Below, piece after piece: positions 1 to 9,545 of a stretch of 39,351 nt of DNA. The notes beneath the pieces were generated by a model that searched no databases, was not told the origin of the DNA, and saw only the letters and a program-made list of their open reading frames with translations. The DNA is taken from IMG/VR virus record IMGVR_UViG_3300018072_000002, positions 1 to 39,351 of that record. One strand, written 5' to 3'. Positions within the stretch are counted from its first letter, which is position 1; every line of letters begins with the position of its first letter. Source of the stretch: a virus (Duplodnaviria > Caudoviricetes). The position numbers were made by a program, and so were the translations under genes.

Positions 1-123
1 CCGCCTGCTTGCAAATTGTCTCCAAAATAAATACATTCGTCCTTGTTCAGATTTTGGATATATTTCATAAGGTTTTTTCCCTTAGTGCCGTCCCTAGTAG
101 TATAATCTATACAAGTATTTCCC
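1..123. repeat. Terminal direct repeat (copy 1), circularity overlap
   Basis: 1-123 is identical to 39229-39351, and an ORF reads through the join in frame. Confidence 0.97.
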
Positions 124-566
124 GCAACTTGGGCAATCAATTCTTCATCCGCAAACGGGTGCGTTTCTAAAATATGCGAGCGGATTTTCTTATCGGGGTC
201 AAAGGCTTTCTTCAAATTCAAATCCGCGTTATGTCCGATAAAACTGTATGATACTTGACTTCCTCTGTCTTCCGTTTCACCATAATAACGATACTTTTTC
301 TTGATAAGCCTTATATGTTTCAAAATTCTTTTTATCTGCTTTTCCGTGAGATAAAATTTCCATCTGTCGGTGTCGTTTCCGTTCTGCGCCAGAATCTTGC
401 ATTTCACTCCTTTTAATTGGAATTTCATTAACTCTTTGGTAGCGCCAGAAATGACATACACATTCGGGAGTTTATTCAAAACACTTTTCATATTCTTTGA
501 GATGGGAGTTCGGCTCTCGCAAATAGTTCCATCACAATCAAAAAAGAAATGCTTATATTTTTGCAT
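1..566 (-). CDS. HAD-IIB hydrolase, eukaryote-type phosphomannomutase-like, 5' part (217 aa in total, continues across the junction to 39141)
   Basis: Not in ORF track. Manual translation MQKYKHFFFDCDGTICESR...VISGA...EDRGSQ...FDPDKKIR...AGNTCID...KG...YFGDNLQAGGND shows HAD motif I DxDGT and the PMM-type EDRGSQ, DPD and GDxxxxGGND motifs. Confidence 0.8.
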   Translation of the reverse strand, partial: MQKYKHFFFDCDGTICESRTPISKNMKSVLNKLPNVYVISGATKELMKFQLKGVKCKILAQNGNDTDRWKFYLTEKQIKRILKHIRLIKKKYRYYGETEDRGSQVSYSFIGHNADLNLKKAFDPDKKIRSHILETHPFADEELIAQVAGNTCIDYTTRDGTKGKNLMKYIQNLNKDECIYFGDNLQAG

Positions 567-957
567 CGCAGATTCTTTTTCTTAACTCCGTACTACTAAA
601 AGTATGTTCCCTGCTGTTGTAAATTACTTTCATCTGGGACAATAAATCCCGTGAATAATTGGGCTTATCTTTCCAGTCCGCGCCCATAAAACGGATGTCG
701 GGTTTTAGACATACCAATAAATTATATAAATCTTCTTCTGTGTCATAAGGTATTACCTCATCTATGAACTTGCACGCTCGCAGTTGCATATATCTCTCAA
801 AAATAGTCTGCACTGGTTTATGTTTTTCTGGTCTGTCAATAGTCGGGTCAGTCTGCAATCCTACGATTAAATAATTGCATTGTTTCTTGCATTCTTCAAA
901 CATTACCAGATGCCCAGCGTGGCAGACATCCCAAGCACCGCATGTGAATCCTGTCAT
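553..957 (-). CDS. tagD: Glycerol-3-phosphate cytidylyltransferase-like (TagD/CTP_transf_like)
   Basis: GAWDVCHAGH (HxGH), LIVGLQTDP, GADW and SREHTFSSTELR motifs. Confidence 0.85.
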   Translation of the reverse strand: MTGFTCGAWDVCHAGHLVMFEECKKQCNYLIVGLQTDPTIDRPEKHKPVQTIFERYMQLRACKFIDEVIPYDTEEDLYNLLVCLKPDIRFMGADWKDKPNYSRDLLSQMKVIYNSREHTFSSTELRKRICDAKI

Positions 958-958
958 T

Positions 959-1087
959 TTAATGCAGAGTTAAAAAATATTCATAAAACCATTCTTTAAA
1001 AGTCATTCCGAAGTAGCCATAAAAAAATCCTTTCTCACTATTTGCATTTCTGCATTCTTCGCAGACTCCGTCAAAATTATGTTTCAT
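959..1087 (-). CDS. Small hypothetical protein (42 aa)
   Basis: Manual translation MKHNFDGVCEECRN...YEYFLTLH; fills the gap tightly between neighbours. Confidence 0.4.
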   Translation of the reverse strand: MKHNFDGVCEECRNANSEKGFFYGYFGMTFKEWFYEYFLTLH

Positions 1088-1382
1088 TTTTCCCATCCAA
1101 AATCTCCAATATCTGACCCGCTATTATTGAGTTTAACCATGCTTTCTCGGCGGTGGCGGCTTTGTTTATCTCCGCCTTTAGAAATACTATATCTTCCGCT
1201 TTCAATTCCACTTTGTCTTCAGTGGCGAATTTCTTTCCTAGTTGCCAAGCAAGGCTCGGATTAGCCGTTATGCCAGATAAGATATTGGCGCAGATTATTC
1301 CGACTGTAACAGGAGTAGTGCCGTCTTTCAGGTCTTCGCCTTTTAGAGATTTGAGTATTATTTTTGTATCTATTGTAAGCAT
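1077..1382 (-). CDS. Hypothetical protein
   Basis: ORF preceded by extended -10 TGATATAAT at 1392-1400. Confidence 0.7.
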   Translation of the reverse strand: MLTIDTKIILKSLKGEDLKDGTTPVTVGIICANILSGITANPSLAWQLGKKFATEDKVELKAEDIVFLKAEINKAATAEKAWLNSIIAGQILEILDGKNET

Positions 1383-1387
1383 ATTAT

Positions 1388-1573
1388 CTAAATTATATCA
1401 CGTTTCGTTGGATTTTCAAACCCATTCCTAAACAATTCCTGTATTTCATCAACACGCATTTCTTTGACGGAGTAAATAACTTGCGCGCGTCTTTTAACAT
1501 CGTTGTATATGATTGCTGTTAATGTTCCATTTCTTTTTATTGCCAGCACGCCTTCAAGCGAAGTATTTTCCAT
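1388..1573 (-). CDS. Hypothetical protein, probably leaderless
   Basis: TGATATAAT ends 6 nt before the ATG. Confidence 0.65.
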   Translation of the reverse strand: MENTSLEGVLAIKRNGTLTAIIYNDVKRRAQVIYSVKEMRVDEIQELFRNGFENPTKRDII

Positions 1574-1799
1574 ATTAAAATTATATCATTCTAACCTCCA
1601 AAAGACTTTTTTGTTTTTAATTTCCCGCATTTTTCGCATTGTCGTCTGATTTATGACATTTACAATCACATATAAATATTCCTACTTTTTCTGCTTGTTT
1701 TTTTAATCCTTCTTCAAATCTTTTATCACAATGTCCGCAAGCGGTTGTTTCTCCTACCGCGTAATAATTTATATTTTGAGTCATTTATTTTTCTAGGGG

Positions 1800-2018
1800 T
1801 TAAACTATTCTATAATTTTCAGGCTTAACTTTAAATCTTCTTCTAAACTCTTCTCTAGCTTTTTTTCTACTTTTTTCGGGATTATTTTTCTGCCATTTTG
1901 CTACTCTTTTTTTAGTGCAAATTTTACATTCTGAAAAAAAATACATTCCTGATGGGTAAAATTCTCTAATATCTTTCTTTTCTTTACAGTTTTTGCAAAT
2001 TTTTTCCATTTGTTTCAT
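1800..2018 (-). CDS. CxxC...CxxC zinc-finger protein resembling the N-terminus of HNH/EndoVII nucleases, without a nuclease domain
   Basis: KICKNCKEKKDIREFY...SECKICTKKRVAKWQKNNPEK. Confidence 0.6.
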   Translation of the reverse strand: MKQMEKICKNCKEKKDIREFYPSGMYFFSECKICTKKRVAKWQKNNPEKSRKKAREEFRRRFKVKPENYRIV

Positions 2019-2422
2019 TTTATTTTATTCCTTAATTGAAATTGTTTTTTCTCAATCCAGTGTTGTATGTTTGGACTTATACTTCCATCGGGATTAGGAT
2101 TTGACTCTAAATCATTTATGAGTTTTTCTCTTTCTGATTTTAGCAAATTTCTCATAAAAGAAATAGCCACATTCCTATGAACTAAAGGTAAATCTTCTTT
2201 ATTGGGAAAATCGGGCAATTCTAAAATCTTTTCTTCCCAATCATTGTCTAGTTTCTCTCCTGCCGTGCAAGGATTTCCGATGAATGGAAATTTACAATAA
2301 GAACAAATAAAAATCTCATTTTCAAGAGGACTCGTACCTTCAACAGAATGTCCTATCTGACAATTCCTGCAGATTTTATCAGGACAATCTAATCCTAGGC
2401 AATTTTTTATTAATCTTTTCAT
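2015..2422 (-). CDS. Cys-rich hypothetical protein
   Basis: ORF with several Cys pairs, 4-nt overlap with the next gene. Confidence 0.6.
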   Translation of the reverse strand: MKRLIKNCLGLDCPDKICRNCQIGHSVEGTSPLENEIFICSYCKFPFIGNPCTAGEKLDNDWEEKILELPDFPNKEDLPLVHRNVAISFMRNLLKSEREKLINDLESNPNPDGSISPNIQHWIEKKQFQLRNKIK

Positions 2423-2494
2423 TTACTTAATGCCCACGCCAATAATGCAAATCCTCCCAAGATTCCCAAAGCCATAAATCCTGCTCCTAATCCA

Positions 2495-2764
2495 TTATAT
2501 AAATTTTCCATATTTATTCATTATATATTTTTTTGCTTGTTCTTTAGTTACTTCTTTGCCGTCCCAATCAAGATATACTTTATCAAAATCTCCTTCATCT
2601 ATAAGTTCACAAAGTATTTCTTTTTGACGAGGAGTATCTTTCTGCATAATCGCACTCATAGACCTGCCTAATTTGTTATATTCTTGCAATAATTTTTCCG
2701 CCTTCTTGCTATGAAAACTCCAACTTTTTAATGTTCTCCACTTTAATGTTAAATGGTCTTTCAT
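2495..2764 (-). CDS. Hypothetical phage protein
   Basis: ORF within the early operon. Confidence 0.65.
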   Translation of the reverse strand: MKDHLTLKWRTLKSWSFHSKKAEKLLQEYNKLGRSMSAIMQKDTPRQKEILCELIDEGDFDKVYLDWDGKEVTKEQAKKYIMNKYGKFI

Positions 2765-2805
2765 TTCTTTATGCTCTTGATAAATCTTTTAATAAACTTC
2801 TTTGA

Positions 2806-3354
2806 CTAAAAATCTTTTAATTTAATTTTATACATTTCGCCATTTTCACAATGCCAAACTATTCCTTCAATTCCGCAATCATTGCCGTATTTTGATTTTT
2901 GCTTTGGTAGCCATTCTTTTAATTCCTCAAAAGAGGTAGGCGCATTTTCGTGTATCGGGACTTGTCCAAGCGTGAAGAATACTATCCTATTTGTCGGCAA
3001 GTTTAGCGGATTACCTTGTATATTAGTTCCAACTGCTTCACCGCTCCATTCACCGTCAGGCAAGGACGTTAAATCAGTATTCTTTAACGCATCATTGAGC
3101 CATTTATCCTCTGAACTAATAGCGGTATCTATATACCACGGCTCAATTATTCCTTTATATTTTTGTATTTTATCGGGATTTCGTCTTTTCTCTAATCTGA
3201 CACAAGTTCCATTTCGTATAGTTAAACGAACATTCATACCATCTAACTTTTCAGTTGCCTTCGCTCCTTTTAAGAAATCTAAAGTGACTCCATCAGCTAT
3301 CTGATTCACTACTTGTCCATTTTTTCTCACAAACAATGTTTTTATTTTTCTCAT
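2806..3354 (-). CDS. Minimal ATP-dependent RNA ligase-like nucleotidyltransferase (DUF5565/RLIG1-like)
   Basis: Motif I ATEKLDGMN, motif III-like GEAVG, motif IV EGIVW, motif V KIK. Confidence 0.75.
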   Translation of the reverse strand: MRKIKTLFVRKNGQVVNQIADGVTLDFLKGAKATEKLDGMNVRLTIRNGTCVRLEKRRNPDKIQKYKGIIEPWYIDTAISSEDKWLNDALKNTDLTSLPDGEWSGEAVGTNIQGNPLNLPTNRIVFFTLGQVPIHENAPTSFEELKEWLPKQKSKYGNDCGIEGIVWHCENGEMYKIKLKDF

Positions 3355-3388
3355 ATATTTTTAATAATATACACCGCTAACGCTCCTC

Positions 3389-3598
3389 CTATCTACCATC
3401 TTTATTCTTGTATTCATCACCCATTTCTTTTACTTCTTTAGGCGTTCGCCTATTAAAACAATCATTGCACAAAGTTGCTCTTTCTTCTGGCGGAATTTCG
3501 CCCCAAATTTCCCTCATTTCCGCAAATTTTTCCTTTTCACCCCACCCTTTAAGGTATATCTTTAAACACATATCGCATTTGAATTCGTTTGATTTCAT
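3389..3598 (-). CDS. Small zinc-finger protein
   Basis: CDMC...CNDC. Confidence 0.6.
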   Translation of the reverse strand: MKSNEFKCDMCLKIYLKGWGEKEKFAEMREIWGEIPPEERATLCNDCFNRRTPKEVKEMGDEYKNKDGR

Positions 3599-3710
3599 TT
3601 CCTTTTAATTCTATTAGAAACTGTGATTAAAGTAAGTTTAGATTTCTTATTAAATCTTTGGGCGATTTTCTGTATTCGGTAGTATTCAGCTAATTCTTTG
3701 TCTATGGTTT

Positions 3711-4103
3711 TCATAATTTCTTGTAATGCTCAATTTTCTCTAAATATACTTCTGCATCCCATTTCGTGTAAGCGGTTTTTAGAATATTCAGCATATTCAC
3801 TTTTTCTTTGCCTAGTTTTTGCCCGTAAATATATTGATTTCCAGAAAGATTGATGTTGCAGTTGAAACATTGAGTGTGAACATTATCTTCGTCAAAGTAT
3901 AAAGCAAGTCCGCCTACACTTTTTGGAATGAAATGTCCCGCGTGTGCCCCGCTACCTTCGCATTTTCTTCCACAAGTGAAACAAATGTTTTTATCCCTTT
4001 TCTTAATATAATCAGAAAACACTTTCCATAGTTTTCTTTTGAGAACTGGAATCTTCTGTTTACTTTTTTTCTTCAAGCGTATCTTTTTCAATGTAGTTTT
4101 CAA
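3711..4103 (-). CDS. ninG: NinG/Rap-like HNH recombination endonuclease
   Basis: FSDYIKKRD, CFTCG, HAGHFI, NVHTQCFNCN; the true start may be a few codons downstream. Confidence 0.85.
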   Translation of the reverse strand: MKTTLKKIRLKKKSKQKIPVLKRKLWKVFSDYIKKRDKNICFTCGRKCEGSGAHAGHFIPKSVGGLALYFDEDNVHTQCFNCNINLSGNQYIYGQKLGKEKVNMLNILKTAYTKWDAEVYLEKIEHYKKL

Positions 4104-4220
4104 GCACTTTAACTAATAGGTCGCGTTCTTCTTTTTTGGTGAACTCGCAAGACAACATAAAATTGGAATGTCCTTGGCAGTTTTTGTGGTCGTTGAAAGC
4201 TGGGATTGGTTCGTATGTTT

Positions 4221-4556
4221 TCATATATTTTGCATATCCATCTCGGCTAATTTTATAAGCGTATTAAGTGCTGAAATCAAAACAGCTATTCTCTTGGTTC
4301 TTAGTTTTAATCCCATTTCATTTATTCCCTCCTCTGTCTGTTCCCACGATTTCTCACATTGATTATCAGACTTGTGTTTCTCTCTATTTTCATTCCACCA
4401 TTTTGGCTTATTTGTCAAGATTTCTTCCAATAATCCCATTAAGAAAGAGAACTCCCCCGCTAACTTTGCTTTCTGTTCTGCCGCGCCGTGGGGATTGGTA
4501 GTTAAACTACCCTCTTTTAGCATATTTTCGGTGATTTTAATGATGTCATCAGCCAT
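4221..4556 (-). CDS. Hypothetical helical protein
   Basis: ORF in recombination neighbourhood. Confidence 0.65.
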   Translation of the reverse strand: MADDIIKITENMLKEGSLTTNPHGAAEQKAKLAGEFSFLMGLLEEILTNKPKWWNENREKHKSDNQCEKSWEQTEEGINEMGLKLRTKRIAVLISALNTLIKLAEMDMQNI

Positions 4557-4583
4557 AATGTCGTTTTCTACCTAAACTCTCGT

Positions 4584-4961
4584 CTACGCCCTCTGGCGGG
4601 CTTCACGCAAGCCCTCTAGGTTCACTGTCTCCAGTTGTTTTAATGCCTTAATCTTATCTAAGAAGTCATTATGGTAATTTTCCACTGCTTTTACCAAATT
4701 TTCAATAGTTTTACTTCCAGCTATTTTTTCTTTCAAACCCATTTCATAAATATCTTCTAGTGCATCGCTCAAAGTTCTATGAAATCCTAGCGCCTCACCT
4801 CTTCGGAATACTCCATTCCTTCTGCTTTCTGTCCGACTATCCGCTACTATATAATTTCTTGGGTCAGTGTAAATCTTGTAATGGTCAAATTTTAAGACTA
4901 ATTTTTCCTTTTCCATTATCTCCTCATCTTCTTCTATTTTTGTTAGTGGTATGTTTGACAT
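4584..4961 (-). CDS. Hypothetical protein (possibly DUF5405-like)
   Basis: YKIYTDPRNYIV...GFHRTLSDAL pattern. Confidence 0.55.
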   Translation of the reverse strand: MSNIPLTKIEEDEEIMEKEKLVLKFDHYKIYTDPRNYIVADSRTESRRNGVFRRGEALGFHRTLSDALEDIYEMGLKEKIAGSKTIENLVKAVENYHNDFLDKIKALKQLETVNLEGLREARQRA

Positions 4962-4965
4962 AAAT

Positions 4966-5394
4966 TTATTTGAAAGGTGAATAATCTTTATCTTCTTTAT
5001 CCCAATTAGTCCACAACCAAGCTCGCCATTTTTCTATGGTTTCTTCATTGGGCTGACCTTCGGCTATTGATAACTGAACTGCGTCTCTCATTGTGGAGGA
5101 TATTTTGATGGAAATATCTTTTCTATCCATTGTCTTGCCGATAGACTGTTCTTTTCTATCCATATTTTTTTCCATCTGTTGCGTTCTAAAATTAGGATTA
5201 CCTGTTTTTGGTTTCTTAATCCTCCAATACCCTTTGTCGTTCTTTTCCAGTTCGCCCTCCCAGTAATCGCCCACAAATTCATTATTCCAAGCGCTAACTT
5301 TGAACACTTCATCTCCCCCATCATCTAAATCCGCTTCTACGAAAGGTTTGCCGTTCCACTCTTTATTATTTTTGTTTGTGATTTGGTATTTCAT
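4966..5394 (-). CDS. Putative ssDNA-binding protein
   Basis: Aromatic beta-rich N-terminus, acidic tail ending DKEDKDYSPFK, location near NinG. Confidence 0.45.
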   Translation of the reverse strand: MKYQITNKNNKEWNGKPFVEADLDDGGDEVFKVSAWNNEFVGDYWEGELEKNDKGYWRIKKPKTGNPNFRTQQMEKNMDRKEQSIGKTMDRKDISIKISSTMRDAVQLSIAEGQPNEETIEKWRAWLWTNWDKEDKDYSPFK

Positions 5395-6094
5395 AATTTT
5401 ATTTTCTAAAATACGAGTAAGCTAATTCTTCAAAGGTATCTCTGGGTTTGAAATCTTTTTGCATCACATTCCAGTTTCTACTTTTCCATGCAGATTGTTC
5501 TTTGGTGAGTTTTCTGCCCGACCCAGCATTAACTATTTTGTCTTTTTCTTTAGAAGATAGATTATTGAATTTCATATATTAGTTTTGAATTATTAGCAGT
5601 CCCAGAATTGCGAACATTAGGAATAGTTCCATTACAAGTGTGATTTGAAATTGTCTACTTCGTAGTGTTTTCATTTTATTTGCAATATTCAATTTCCAAT
5701 TCTCTTAAAATAATGATGACATTATCAGGGATTATTTCATCATTAAGTTGCGCTTCCTTTATTTTTATTTCAACATCTCGCAAAGCAGAAATTTTTATAA
5801 GTTTTTCTATTTCTTTTTCCATTTTATTTACGGGCATTTATTGTAATAGGCGAGTTTTTCGGCATCCGACCAATCCTCTGCCGAATCATCAATGAACCCT
5901 TCCTTGATTGCGTAACTGATTAAATTATTTATCTCTTTCATTTTATCGGGCATAAGGTGAAACTATATTATTATTTTTATAATCCTTAATAATTTTATTC
6001 TCGGTGAAACATTGGTGGCAGTGTTCGGTGAAAGTATTATGGAAGCCAGCTTTGTGCTCTTGTTCGTTGAAATCCAATTCATTTTCTAATATGT

Positions 6095-6259
6095 TCATTG
6101 TTTTTTATTCATCGCCAAATTTATAATTGTTCGCACAACTTCGCTCTCGGATATATTTTCCTTCTTGGCTTGTTTTTTCACGAACTCGACCTGTTGGGGG
6201 GAAAACCTCCAAGATACTTGAACTACTTTTTCGTAATCTTCTTTGATGTATGATTTCAT
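6095..6259 (-). CDS. Ribbon-helix-helix (CopG/Arc-like) DNA-binding protein, 54 aa
   Basis: Below the ORF-track cutoff. Manual translation ...VQVSWRFSPQQVEFVKKQAKKENISESEVVRTIINLAM matches the RHH pattern. Confidence 0.75.
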   Translation of the reverse strand: MKSYIKEDYEKVVQVSWRFSPQQVEFVKKQAKKENISESEVVRTIINLAMNKKQ

Positions 6260-6260
6260 T

Positions 6261-6512
6261 TTATTTTTCTTTACTAATTATTTCTTTTTTTAATTCTTCC
6301 TGTATCTTTGAACTATAATTATAGAAAACTTCCCGAATAATATCTCCCGAAAAACTAGAGCCGTGCCGTATCTTTTCTAAAATCTCTTTATCAGTAATAT
6401 ATTTTTCCATTACCTCATAATTAGTATCTTCTTTCTCCAACACTTCATAAAAAATATCGGACAAAACATCTAACAGACCCACTATAAATAATTTTTCTTG
6501 TATATTTTTCAT
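6261..6512 (-). CDS. Hypothetical protein
   Basis: ORF in early operon. Confidence 0.55.
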   Translation of the reverse strand: MKNIQEKLFIVGLLDVLSDIFYEVLEKEDTNYEVMEKYITDKEILEKIRHGSSFSGDIIREVFYNYSSKIQEELKKEIISKEK

Positions 6513-6515
6513 AAA

Positions 6516-6686
6516 TTATTTATATCCATACTTTTTTAATTCCTCATCTTTCAATTCTTTTATTTTACTAATCCACCAATGAAACATTTGCTGTTGCTCT
6601 TCTGATAAAACATAATTGCAATTATCACAAAATGTTTCTGTACCAAATCTTTCTCTATATTCTTCTTTTAATTTATCTTCGTCCAT
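6516..6686 (-). CDS. Small hypothetical protein (56 aa, CxxC), first ORF of the early operon
   Basis: Manual translation MDEDKLKEEYRERFGTETFCDNCNY... Confidence 0.55.
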   Translation of the reverse strand: MDEDKLKEEYRERFGTETFCDNCNYVLSEEQQQMFHWWISKIKELKDEELKKYGYK

Positions 6687-6697
6687 AATTTTATTAA

Positions 6698-6804
6698 AAG
6701 CGGACTACGCAGTAGGTTTTTCAACCATAGGATTTCTCCCTTAGGTCTGCCGTTATTACAGCATTACTTTTGACTTTGTTTATTTGCTCAAAAGCTCCCC
6801 GCCT
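6698..6804 (-). ncRNA. Putative structured leader/ncRNA, multi-stem junction with 11-nt tetraloop receptor
   Basis: Stems GGCGGG/UCCGCU, GCUUUUGA/UCAAAAGU, UGCUGU/ACGGCA, GACC-UAAG-GGA-GAAA-UCC-UAU-GGUU, CUAC/GUAG; begins right after a promoter. Confidence 0.65.
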
Positions 6805-6808
6805 ATAA

Positions 6809-6854
6809 AATGTATTAGATAGCGATATCAATGTCAAGCAAGCGGTGTGGATAA
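6809..6854 (-). promoter_or_regulatory. Sigma70-type promoter with upstream DnaA box
   Basis: TTGACA (6837-6832), 17-nt spacer, TACATT (6814-6809); TTATCCACA at 6854-6846. Confidence 0.75.
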
Positions 6855-6883
6855 CTTATTCTGTCAAGAAAAGAGGTTATTAC

Positions 6884-7096
6884 CTATAAAGGATAGTTCA
6901 ATGGCTCTTTACTTTCTTTTTCTATTTCCTCTAGCGGGCAGAAAGTCATAGTTTGCCCCGTAGGAAATACTATACGGAGCGCCTGCTTATCTTTTCTCAT
7001 ATAAAGCGTTGTGCCGAAAGTTACTACATTTTGACCTGCAATTTTATATAAATCTATTATGTCGTAATCAACGAAGCGCGGTTGTTTCTTTTTCAT
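6884..7096 (-). CDS. Hypothetical protein
   Basis: ORF, 4-nt overlap with the upstream gene. Confidence 0.6.
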   Translation of the reverse strand: MKKKQPRFVDYDIIDLYKIAGQNVVTFGTTLYMRKDKQALRIVFPTGQTMTFCPLEEIEKESKEPLNYPL

Positions 7097-7329: not shown

Positions 7330-7414
7330 TTCTTTCTATAAATAAATCTATAAGGGCGGGGATGGAAGCCGAAAGTGATTTTCCATAGGTATTTCATTAT
7401 TGCTTTTAATATTT

Positions 7415-8685: not shown

Positions 8686-9545
8686 TTTGATATTTTATAG
8701 GTGTTAATGTTATGAGCCGAAAGGCAGAATCCTATGTGGATTAGTTTTGTTCTATCTCTTTCGGTGGCAAAATACCAGTCAATGACATCGGTTATCTCGC
8801 TGGGCTTCATTCCTTTCTTAAAAAGATTAGCTATTATGATATTTTGCTTAAAAGTCATCATCGGCTTTATCTTCAGTAATTTCTCACATTTTGCGCTGAA
8901 ATAATCCTTTATGTAATTTATAGCTTTTTGACGCTTGGGTTCCAATGGGCGAGCCAGTTCTCCTGTTTCAATATCAATACTATCTTCAAAGTTATCACTG
9001 TGCTTGTTTTCGTTATAGCTACCCATTTTGTTTTTTATCATTCTTTTATTATTAGTGGCATCTTCTTCTTTAGAAGAAGTGCTAATGTCTATTGTACTGT
9101 CATACTGTACTGTCTTATTAGATGTACCAGATTCTTCCCTGAGATGTACCAGATTGTGGACTTCTGGTGTACCAGATTGTGGACTTCTCTTTGGTTGCCA
9201 ACCGAATGATTTTTTAGCTTTTGTAACTGAAATACTTTTTCCATATGGGGTTCTTATTGTTTTAATATATCCTTCTATTTCTAATTTACTTAAAATCTTC
9301 ATTATTGTTTTTCTATCCCCGAATCTCTTTAATTCTTCTACTTTTATGGGTTTTCCTCCTAAAACTTTTCCAAGACCTGTTTCTAAATCAATTTTTGTCA
9401 TTTTATCCAATAACCAAAGATAAACCCAAATACAACTTGTCTTCTGATTAACACGCATTTTTTCATAATGCTTCGGCTCCAATAATCCATTTGAAACAGT
9501 AATATAGTACATCTCATTTTTTATATCTATGGATATTTTTCTCAA
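8682..9545 (-). CDS. Replication initiator (lambda O-like organisation, N-terminal winged helix)
   Basis: wHTH-like N-terminus (RKTIMKILSKLEIEGYIKT), internal iterons, directly upstream of the helicase. Confidence 0.75.
   Translation of the reverse strand: MRKISIDIKNEMYYITVSNGLLEPKHYEKMRVNQKTSCIWVYLWLLDKMTKIDLETGLGKVLGGKPIKVEELKRFGDRKTIMKILSKLEIEGYIKTIRTPYGKSISVTKAKKSFGWQPKRSPQSGTPEVHNLVHLREESGTSNKTVQYDSTIDISTSSKEEDATNNKRMIKNKMGSYNENKHSDNFEDSIDIETGELARPLEPKRQKAINYIKDYFSAKCEKLLKIKPMMTFKQNIIIANLFKKGMKPSEITDVIDWYFATERDRTKLIHIGFCLSAHNINTYKISK
9120..9188. repeat. Iterons, probable replication origin
   Basis: TGTACCAGATT three times, two copies extended to TGTACCAGATTGTGGACTTCT, period 22-23 bp, inside the initiator gene. 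Confidence 0.8.

Follow-up and report, generated by a model that had tools for sequence, protein, structure and literature searches.

The window analysed here is the whole 39,351-base virus record, which carries direct terminal repeats. Genes on its minus strand encode a terminase, a major capsid protein and DnaB-like and DnaD-like replication proteins, among others. Also encoded are a NinG-like nuclease, an RNA ligase (RLIG1-like, 2806-3354, minus strand, in the same gene run as the RNA described below) and, elsewhere in the genome, several HNH proteins. Direct repeats of 14-21 nt, spaced 22-23 nt apart, lie at 9120-9188 inside the DnaD-like gene and are likely origin iterons, a reading that we assume by analogy with lambda O. 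A 54-aa ORF (6095-6259, minus strand) resembles a ribbon-helix-helix repressor by eye and has no Pfam or PHROG match.

The capsid protein has many close metagenomic relatives, two of which are labelled Candidatus Dojkabacteria, and no match among annotated phage records. With the helicase as query, related loci were not found. Given the Dojkabacteria labels and the Shine-Dalgarno-like motif at only 4 of the 58 gene starts in the window, a host among the Patescibacteria (CPR) is a fair inference.

The RNA locus and its promoter

The RNA is about 107 bases long and is encoded on the minus strand (6804-6698). A sequence-only reading had described five stems, an 11-nt GAAA-tetraloop receptor and a competing hairpin. 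The closing stem pairs as described, and the receptor hairpin (CCUAAG-GGA-GAAA-UCC-UAUGG) lies at 6745-6725. It is the sole match in the window even when two mismatches are allowed (0.16 expected by chance), and its CCUAAG and UAUGG strands are opposed in a helix, as in an 11-nt receptor. The GGUU-GAAA-AACC hairpin is also present and overlaps the 3' strand of the receptor, making the two folds mutually exclusive. The predicted fold of the window RNA has the five stems proposed (the closing stem and four hairpins; -30.1 kcal/mol, z -2.5, matched by 3 of 200 shuffles), but the consensus of three related sequences has four, the fifth stem of the window (6715-6705) being absent in both relatives. 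In the three-sequence comparison the fold z-scores are -5.9 (L510), -3.5 (L503) and -2.2 (window). The receptor hairpin alone says little, since this 21-nt hairpin is common in phage group I introns, and the case is carried by the homologues.

The promoter proposed just upstream of the RNA was found (Table 1). Its consensus by itself is not above chance (18 sites found, 20.5 expected); its support comes from two related phages, G001 and G019, in both of which the upstream block recurs and precedes a -35/-10 pair, with an ATG 6 nt further on (by eye). From this spacing we predict a transcription start at about 6802-6804, the first bases of P1. The upstream block ends in a TTATCCACA box, which we presume to be DnaA-box-like. 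In G001 the promoter runs directly into a similar AAATTATGGA start with no RNA between, an arrangement that is only suggestive of an empty site because the next gene differs. Downstream of a second TTATCCACA box (about 9920-9860, minus strand) stand an extended -10 TATAAT and, 6 nt on, an ATG (by eye), which suggests that short-leader or leaderless promoters are the rule in this phage. G019 has a nearly identical copy of a non-coding block of about 60 nt at 7334-7389 of the window; the block contains CCCCGCC, complementary to the 5' strand of the RNA, and has no notable fold on either strand. The RNA does not mark the 5' end of the early region as a whole, because the same strand carries the DnaD-like and DnaB-like genes further upstream.

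Table 1. Features of the RNA locus, in window coordinates
Feature	Position	Strand	Observation
Upstream block ending in TTATCCACA box	6846..6867	-	present in G019, less exactly in G001
Predicted sigma-70-type promoter, TTGACA-17-TACATT	6809..6837	-	consensus; similar promoters in G001 and G019 by eye
P1 closing stem, 5' strand	6798..6804	-	6 pairs counted, all cells paired, 1 compensatory
P2 hairpin, variable stem	6766..6795	-	6 of 8 pairs change on both sides; 87.5% of cells paired
P2 loop, 12 nt, CAAAUAAACAAA	6775..6786	-	invariant; always 11 nt before P3
P3 hairpin, directly abuts P4	6748..6763	-	3 of 6 pairs change on both sides; all cells paired
P4 with canonical 11-nt receptor (6745-6740, 6729-6725) and GAAA cap	6723..6747	-	
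Alternative GGUU-GAAA-AACC hairpin	6715..6726	-	exclusive with receptor base
J4/1 linker, 18-19 nt: GAAAA, ACC, variable middle, UA	6705..6722	-	contains non-conserved fifth stem 6715-6705
P1 closing stem, 3' strand	6698..6704	-	CGCUU invariant
First downstream ORF, 56 aa	6516..6686	-	ATG 11 nt past P1; no PHROG, Pfam or Atlas match

Relatives, conserved anatomy and genomic contexts

The sequence-only reading could not match the RNA to a known family, and neither could we. Rfam 15 gave no family at gathering score over the whole window, no match on the RNA within 6500-7000 at E up to 10, and no family for the RNAs of L503 and L510. One metagenome scan, with an exact pattern fixing 19 letters, returned 56 loci: the window's own record (L499, left out of the homologue count), three homologues (L510, L503 and L513) and 52 others. 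L510 scores 80 bits with the family model, and L503 and L513, whose RNAs are identical, score 65 bits. There are thus three distinct RNA sequences. An independent study (run X8) contributes one short contig of 151 bases (depth 2) that is identical to the window over exactly 6690-6803, has different flanks and places an ATG 10 nt after P1. In a contig from X4 one A of the GAAA cap is missing, which may be an error (depth 3.9).

Other collections yielded no further member. Models R1 and R2 found the RNA in 0 of 31 capsid-related phage records, 9 of which have a completeness of 90% or more; R2, which had the window as positive control, gave 17 bits as its best other score among these records. The RNA is also absent from 49 shorter capsid loci. 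A scan for the receptor with a GAAA cap covered 32 of 64 parts of a viral collection and gave 119 loci without a homologue; 97 of the 122 matches are fully paired, most of them group I intron-like by eye. No homologue came from a looser pattern (13 of 64 parts; too loose), from further pattern scans of the same collection (78, 88, 114 and 6 loci, with R1 applied to the 88 and to 79 of the 114), from a sequence profile over 692 loci, or from a species-genome scan (22 matches, 21 of which were given to the model). BLAST against phage and plasmid records returned short chance matches only, and a model search in four unrelated genomes found nothing. L500 (22-26 bits), L535, L608 and L624 were dropped as homologues, as were three capsid-related records at 15-17 bits, the loop being missing or the stems broken. 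Diverged family members will have been missed, because all scans demand exact motifs. In the published literature and supplements the motif was not found, within coverage that includes part of one survey of viral structured RNAs (PMC10690425) which may list it unnamed. We conclude that this is a real family of small structured phage RNAs with four stems, rare, thinly sampled and, as far as these searches go, new.

The scans also brought up other structured RNAs. Many group I intron-like phage loci (L001-L119) share the receptor hairpin with a 3-bp GAAA cap, as P5 or P8, and some of them sit inside tRNA genes. In two phages (L687 and L689, both at 3001-3033) the receptor and a GU-GAAAA-CC directly after it belong to a different structured RNA without an Rfam family. 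L579 (at about 2940-3130), L641 and L054 contain long stretches that fold strongly and carry CCUAAG and UAUGG; these have no convincing Rfam match and are possibly large phage non-coding RNAs.

Comparison of the three distinct sequences revealed covariation: 11 of 28 pairs change on both sides. In the alignment 96.3% of cells pair, a level reached by 0 of 500 shuffles (29-47% in slid controls), although these statistics are favoured by a consensus structure derived from the same three sequences. From P3 to the linker, the window and L510 are identical over a 55-nt core, and L510 has a longer predicted P1. Junction lengths are fixed (P1 to loop 11-12 nt, loop to P3 11 nt, P4 to P1 18-19 nt), and the invariant unpaired letters are mostly A. 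The A-rich P2 loop is of (YAAA)3 type and is invariant though it lies outside the search pattern; 0 copies of CAAAUAAACAAA occur in the 52 other metagenome-scan loci. The invariance of the receptor was selected by the search, since the receptor belonged to the pattern. Its GAAA cap sits on the receptor's own helix and is replaced in L503 by GUAA on a shorter stem, and the other GAAA hairpin excludes the receptor. A complementary target for the P2 loop or linker was not found on the other strand of the window.

The alternative hairpin differs from the receptor fold by 1.0 (window), -0.7 (L510) and 0.8 kcal/mol (L503). The two exclusive folds therefore recur in all three sequences at near-equal computed energy (within 1 kcal/mol), a balance that may be an artefact because the folding model omits tertiary energy. 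Pairing in the alternative hairpin shows no covariation and is unproven, as its letters are invariant and most of them belong to the search pattern. In L503 and L510, 10-20 nt 3' of P1, we observed CAAA(A/G)GGUC, a possible pairing partner for the conserved linker ACC; it is absent from the window and X8.

All copies lie on the coding strand, in four contexts whose downstream genes all differ. No terminator follows the RNA in any context, and no Shine-Dalgarno platform was found 3' of it. In L503/L513 the RNA comes after a NinG-like gene and an 85-aa ORF, with the next start about 53 nt away. The 85-aa ORF of L503 runs into P1 and P2, ending inside P2, and has no relatives in our searches that could show an insertion. 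L503 has the NinG-like gene in common with the window and one small gene in common with a capsid-related phage. In L510 the RNA is flanked by small ORFs, and the next start follows after about 100 nt. A promoter-proximal position is predicted in the window and not seen in L503 or L510; the X8 flank is only 11 nt. Typical operon control from the 5' end, as first proposed, does not agree with the L503/L513 and L510 copies, which sit between small genes or overlap them and are not immediately preceded by a promoter-like site. That idea is further weakened because the RNA is mid-operon in two of the four contexts, lacks a terminator and is missing from all of the capsid-related records. The conserved four-way junction moves as a unit, independent of its neighbour genes.

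Comparison with known RNA classes

The RNA shares with the P2-P3-P8 part of group I introns (RF00028) the same receptor hairpin module and the same order of a hairpin, a short A-rich joint and two abutting helices. The loop-to-P3 distance of 11 nt (15 from its UAAA) is comparable, not equal, to the 12-13 nt found in 10 of the 13 intron-like loci with a GNRA hairpin at that place (42 examined). Unlike the introns, the RNA is only about 107 nt long, has its own closing stem and lacks P4-P6, P7 and a terminal G; unlike intron L2, its P2 loop is a 12-nt invariant sequence and not GNRA. A group I intron was rejected: P4-P6 and the P7 guanosine site are absent, and RF00028 misses the window, L503 and L510 and matches the controls L107 and L033.

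The Moco RNA and GEMM (c-di-GMP-I) are likewise small multistem junctions with a tetraloop receptor in one stem, according to the available parts of PMC2408646 and PMC11571812. In the Moco RNA the receptor is in P2, a GNRA loop caps P4, and the RNA lies upstream of Moco genes (PMC2408646, same part). Unlike both, the RNA lacks an expression platform and a consistent set of downstream genes, has no Rfam match, and offers no stem with a GAAA cap that could act as partner while the receptor is formed. The Moco RNA itself was ruled out on the absence of an Rfam match and on the different fold and downstream genes. More generally, the RNA is not in the 5' UTR of functionally related genes and has no expression platform, the features by which a riboswitch class is recognized.

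The hatchet ribozyme also has four stems, A-rich loops and a metagenome-only occurrence. Its P1 hairpin precedes a nested P2-P3-P4 arm, and its conserved positions are C20-A22, U28-G31, G63-G66 and A73-A75 (PMC6561176, available in part), whereas the RNA is a closed four-way junction without a UGGG-like segment. Hatchet was therefore ruled out: the architecture differs, the CAA, UGGG, GCAG and AAA segments are not all found and there is no Rfam match (PMC4604424 and PMC6561176, both in part). More broadly, the conserved core of a known ribozyme is absent from the RNA. The hammerhead core consists of CUGANGA and GAAA; with no CUGA segment in the three sequences and no Rfam match, the hammerhead, permuted forms included, was ruled out as well. 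ARAGORN reported 0 tRNA or tmRNA genes in the window, L503, L510 and L513.

Possible functions

Of the three functions offered earlier (riboswitch, antiterminator and ribozyme), a ribozyme appears to fit the contexts best and a riboswitch worst. We estimate a probability of roughly one in four that the RNA is a four-stem, likely compact docked junction acting as a new kind of self-cleaving ribozyme that cuts its own transcript. Self-cleavage would be the best single fit because there is no expression platform, no common regulated gene and no terminator. P3 would stack on P4, and the A-rich P2 loop would dock on the P4 receptor in the manner of the L2-P8 contact of group I introns. A pocket might be built by the conserved junction letters (GA, AA, GAAAA-ACC, UA); riboswitch pockets and small ribozymes are constructed in this way, from a junction that a peripheral contact locks. 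We guess that this pocket could be a cleavage site that splits the early polycistronic mRNA, which might give the downstream genes a new short leader, with the alternative GGUU hairpin as the inactive fold.

Counted in favour of a ribozyme are the covariation, the fixed junction lengths, the independence from neighbours, the identical X8 copy with other flanks and the patchy spread, along with the matching promoter of the closest relative, behind which an ATG follows directly. The accessible portion of PMC10085705 gives multi-stem junctions with conserved positions as marks of ribozyme candidates. The absence of a 3' terminator favours the same reading, since such a terminator is said to conflict with self-cleavage (PMC5737381, in the part available). 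The base rate is low: cleavage was seen for none of the 10 candidate motifs tested in the first of these studies and for none of three junction motifs in the second, as far as the portions available report. The first also expects candidates of 50-80 nt, and the RNA has about 107. Against cleavage, the window RNA begins at the predicted start site, so that cutting would remove little, and the family comprises three distinct sequences only, with all relatives found via the 19-letter pattern. The docking partner is unproven because the receptor has a preference for GAAA (from the part of PMC11571812 available) and the P2 loop does not belong to the GNRA tetraloops. Eukaryotic RNA viruses, in which ribozymes in the 5' UTR can serve translation, are a loose precedent (PMC13725137, in part). 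The proposal is the best single guess, closely followed by a cis-acting antiterminator or mRNA stabiliser and by a protein decoy.

The RNA could possibly act in cis without cleavage, either as an antiterminator that binds the elongating RNA polymerase, like put of HK022 or the Bacillus EAR, or as a block that shields the mRNA from 5' decay. Those two elements are likewise structured, gene-independent and on the coding strand of operons. Consistent with such a role, the RNA always lies on the coding strand without a tie to one gene, begins at the predicted start site in the window and ends 10-11 nt before an ATG in the window and X8. Its patchiness and mid-operon copies have parallels as well, since put is patchy among lambdoid phages and EAR is located mid-operon. 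However, the architecture differs from put and EAR, two of the four contexts are not promoter-proximal, and there is little downstream to antiterminate: positions 1-6700 contain only 2 terminator-like sites on the coding strand (4 on both strands, 3.6 expected). The ORF running into P1 and P2 in L503, the lack of the RNA in 31 of 31 capsid-related records and the absence of any boxA-like sequence also speak against it.

Somewhat doubtful is a decoy or scaffold RNA that would be processed out along P1 and present its (YAAA)3 loop to a host protein, for example blunting a defence nuclease. An invariant 12-nt loop held at a fixed distance on a variable stem would suit this role, as would closed ends and a location among small accessory genes. 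It is opposed by the lack of a terminator and, in L503 and L510, of a promoter-like site just upstream, and by the lack of a partner gene common to the contexts, the NinG-like gene being found only in the window and L503/L513. There is also some chance that the RNA does something other than any of the readings listed here.

A riboswitch-like sensor, in which a ligand would favour the receptor fold over the alternative hairpin and so alter expression of the next gene, seems unlikely. The two exclusive folds of near-equal energy in all three sequences fit a switch, as does the end of P1 close to an ATG in two contexts, and tetraloop receptors are known in the GEMM and Moco riboswitch classes (PMC11571812 and PMC2408646, available portions). 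However, the downstream genes have nothing in common, the next ATG in L503 and L510 is distant, Shine-Dalgarno-like motifs are scarce in the window and the fold balance may come from the energy model.

Least probable is a remnant of a phage group I intron (its P2-P3-P8 part, with P4-P6 and P7 lost), since, despite the identical 21-nt receptor hairpin in intron locus L107, the same order of P2, P3 and receptor helix and an intron-matrix score of 4.8 for the upstream flank of the window and L510 (background -4.3, sd 4.9), the Intron_gpI model matches L107 and L033 and none of L503, L510 or the window, the downstream flanks score -10.7 to -20.0 against 14.3 for introns (on a matrix of mixed P5- and P8-type sites), L503 has no P3-like letters, and the RNA's own P1 and invariant loop show selection on a different fold.

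Whether by self-cleavage, our preferred reading, or by switching, the RNA may, tentatively, represent a new natural RNA class, catalytic or ligand-sensing, in phages whose hosts are small bacteria that lack Shine-Dalgarno sequences. In this reading a portable 107-nt four-way junction would fill its 11-nt receptor with a 12-nt loop outside the GNRA type, or with the alternative GAAA hairpin from a second molecule, and its cleavage or switching would release accessory genes from early transcripts. Natural homes of the tetraloop receptor are few: six sites, in group I and II introns, RNase P and GEMM, are given in the available part of PMC11571812, and the Moco RNA is another (PMC2408646, in part). 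A small receptor-bearing family in which no GAAA partner coexists would extend the known kinds of tertiary contact. If self-cleavage is true, the family would be a new ribozyme class; if switching is true, it would be a phage ligand sensor.
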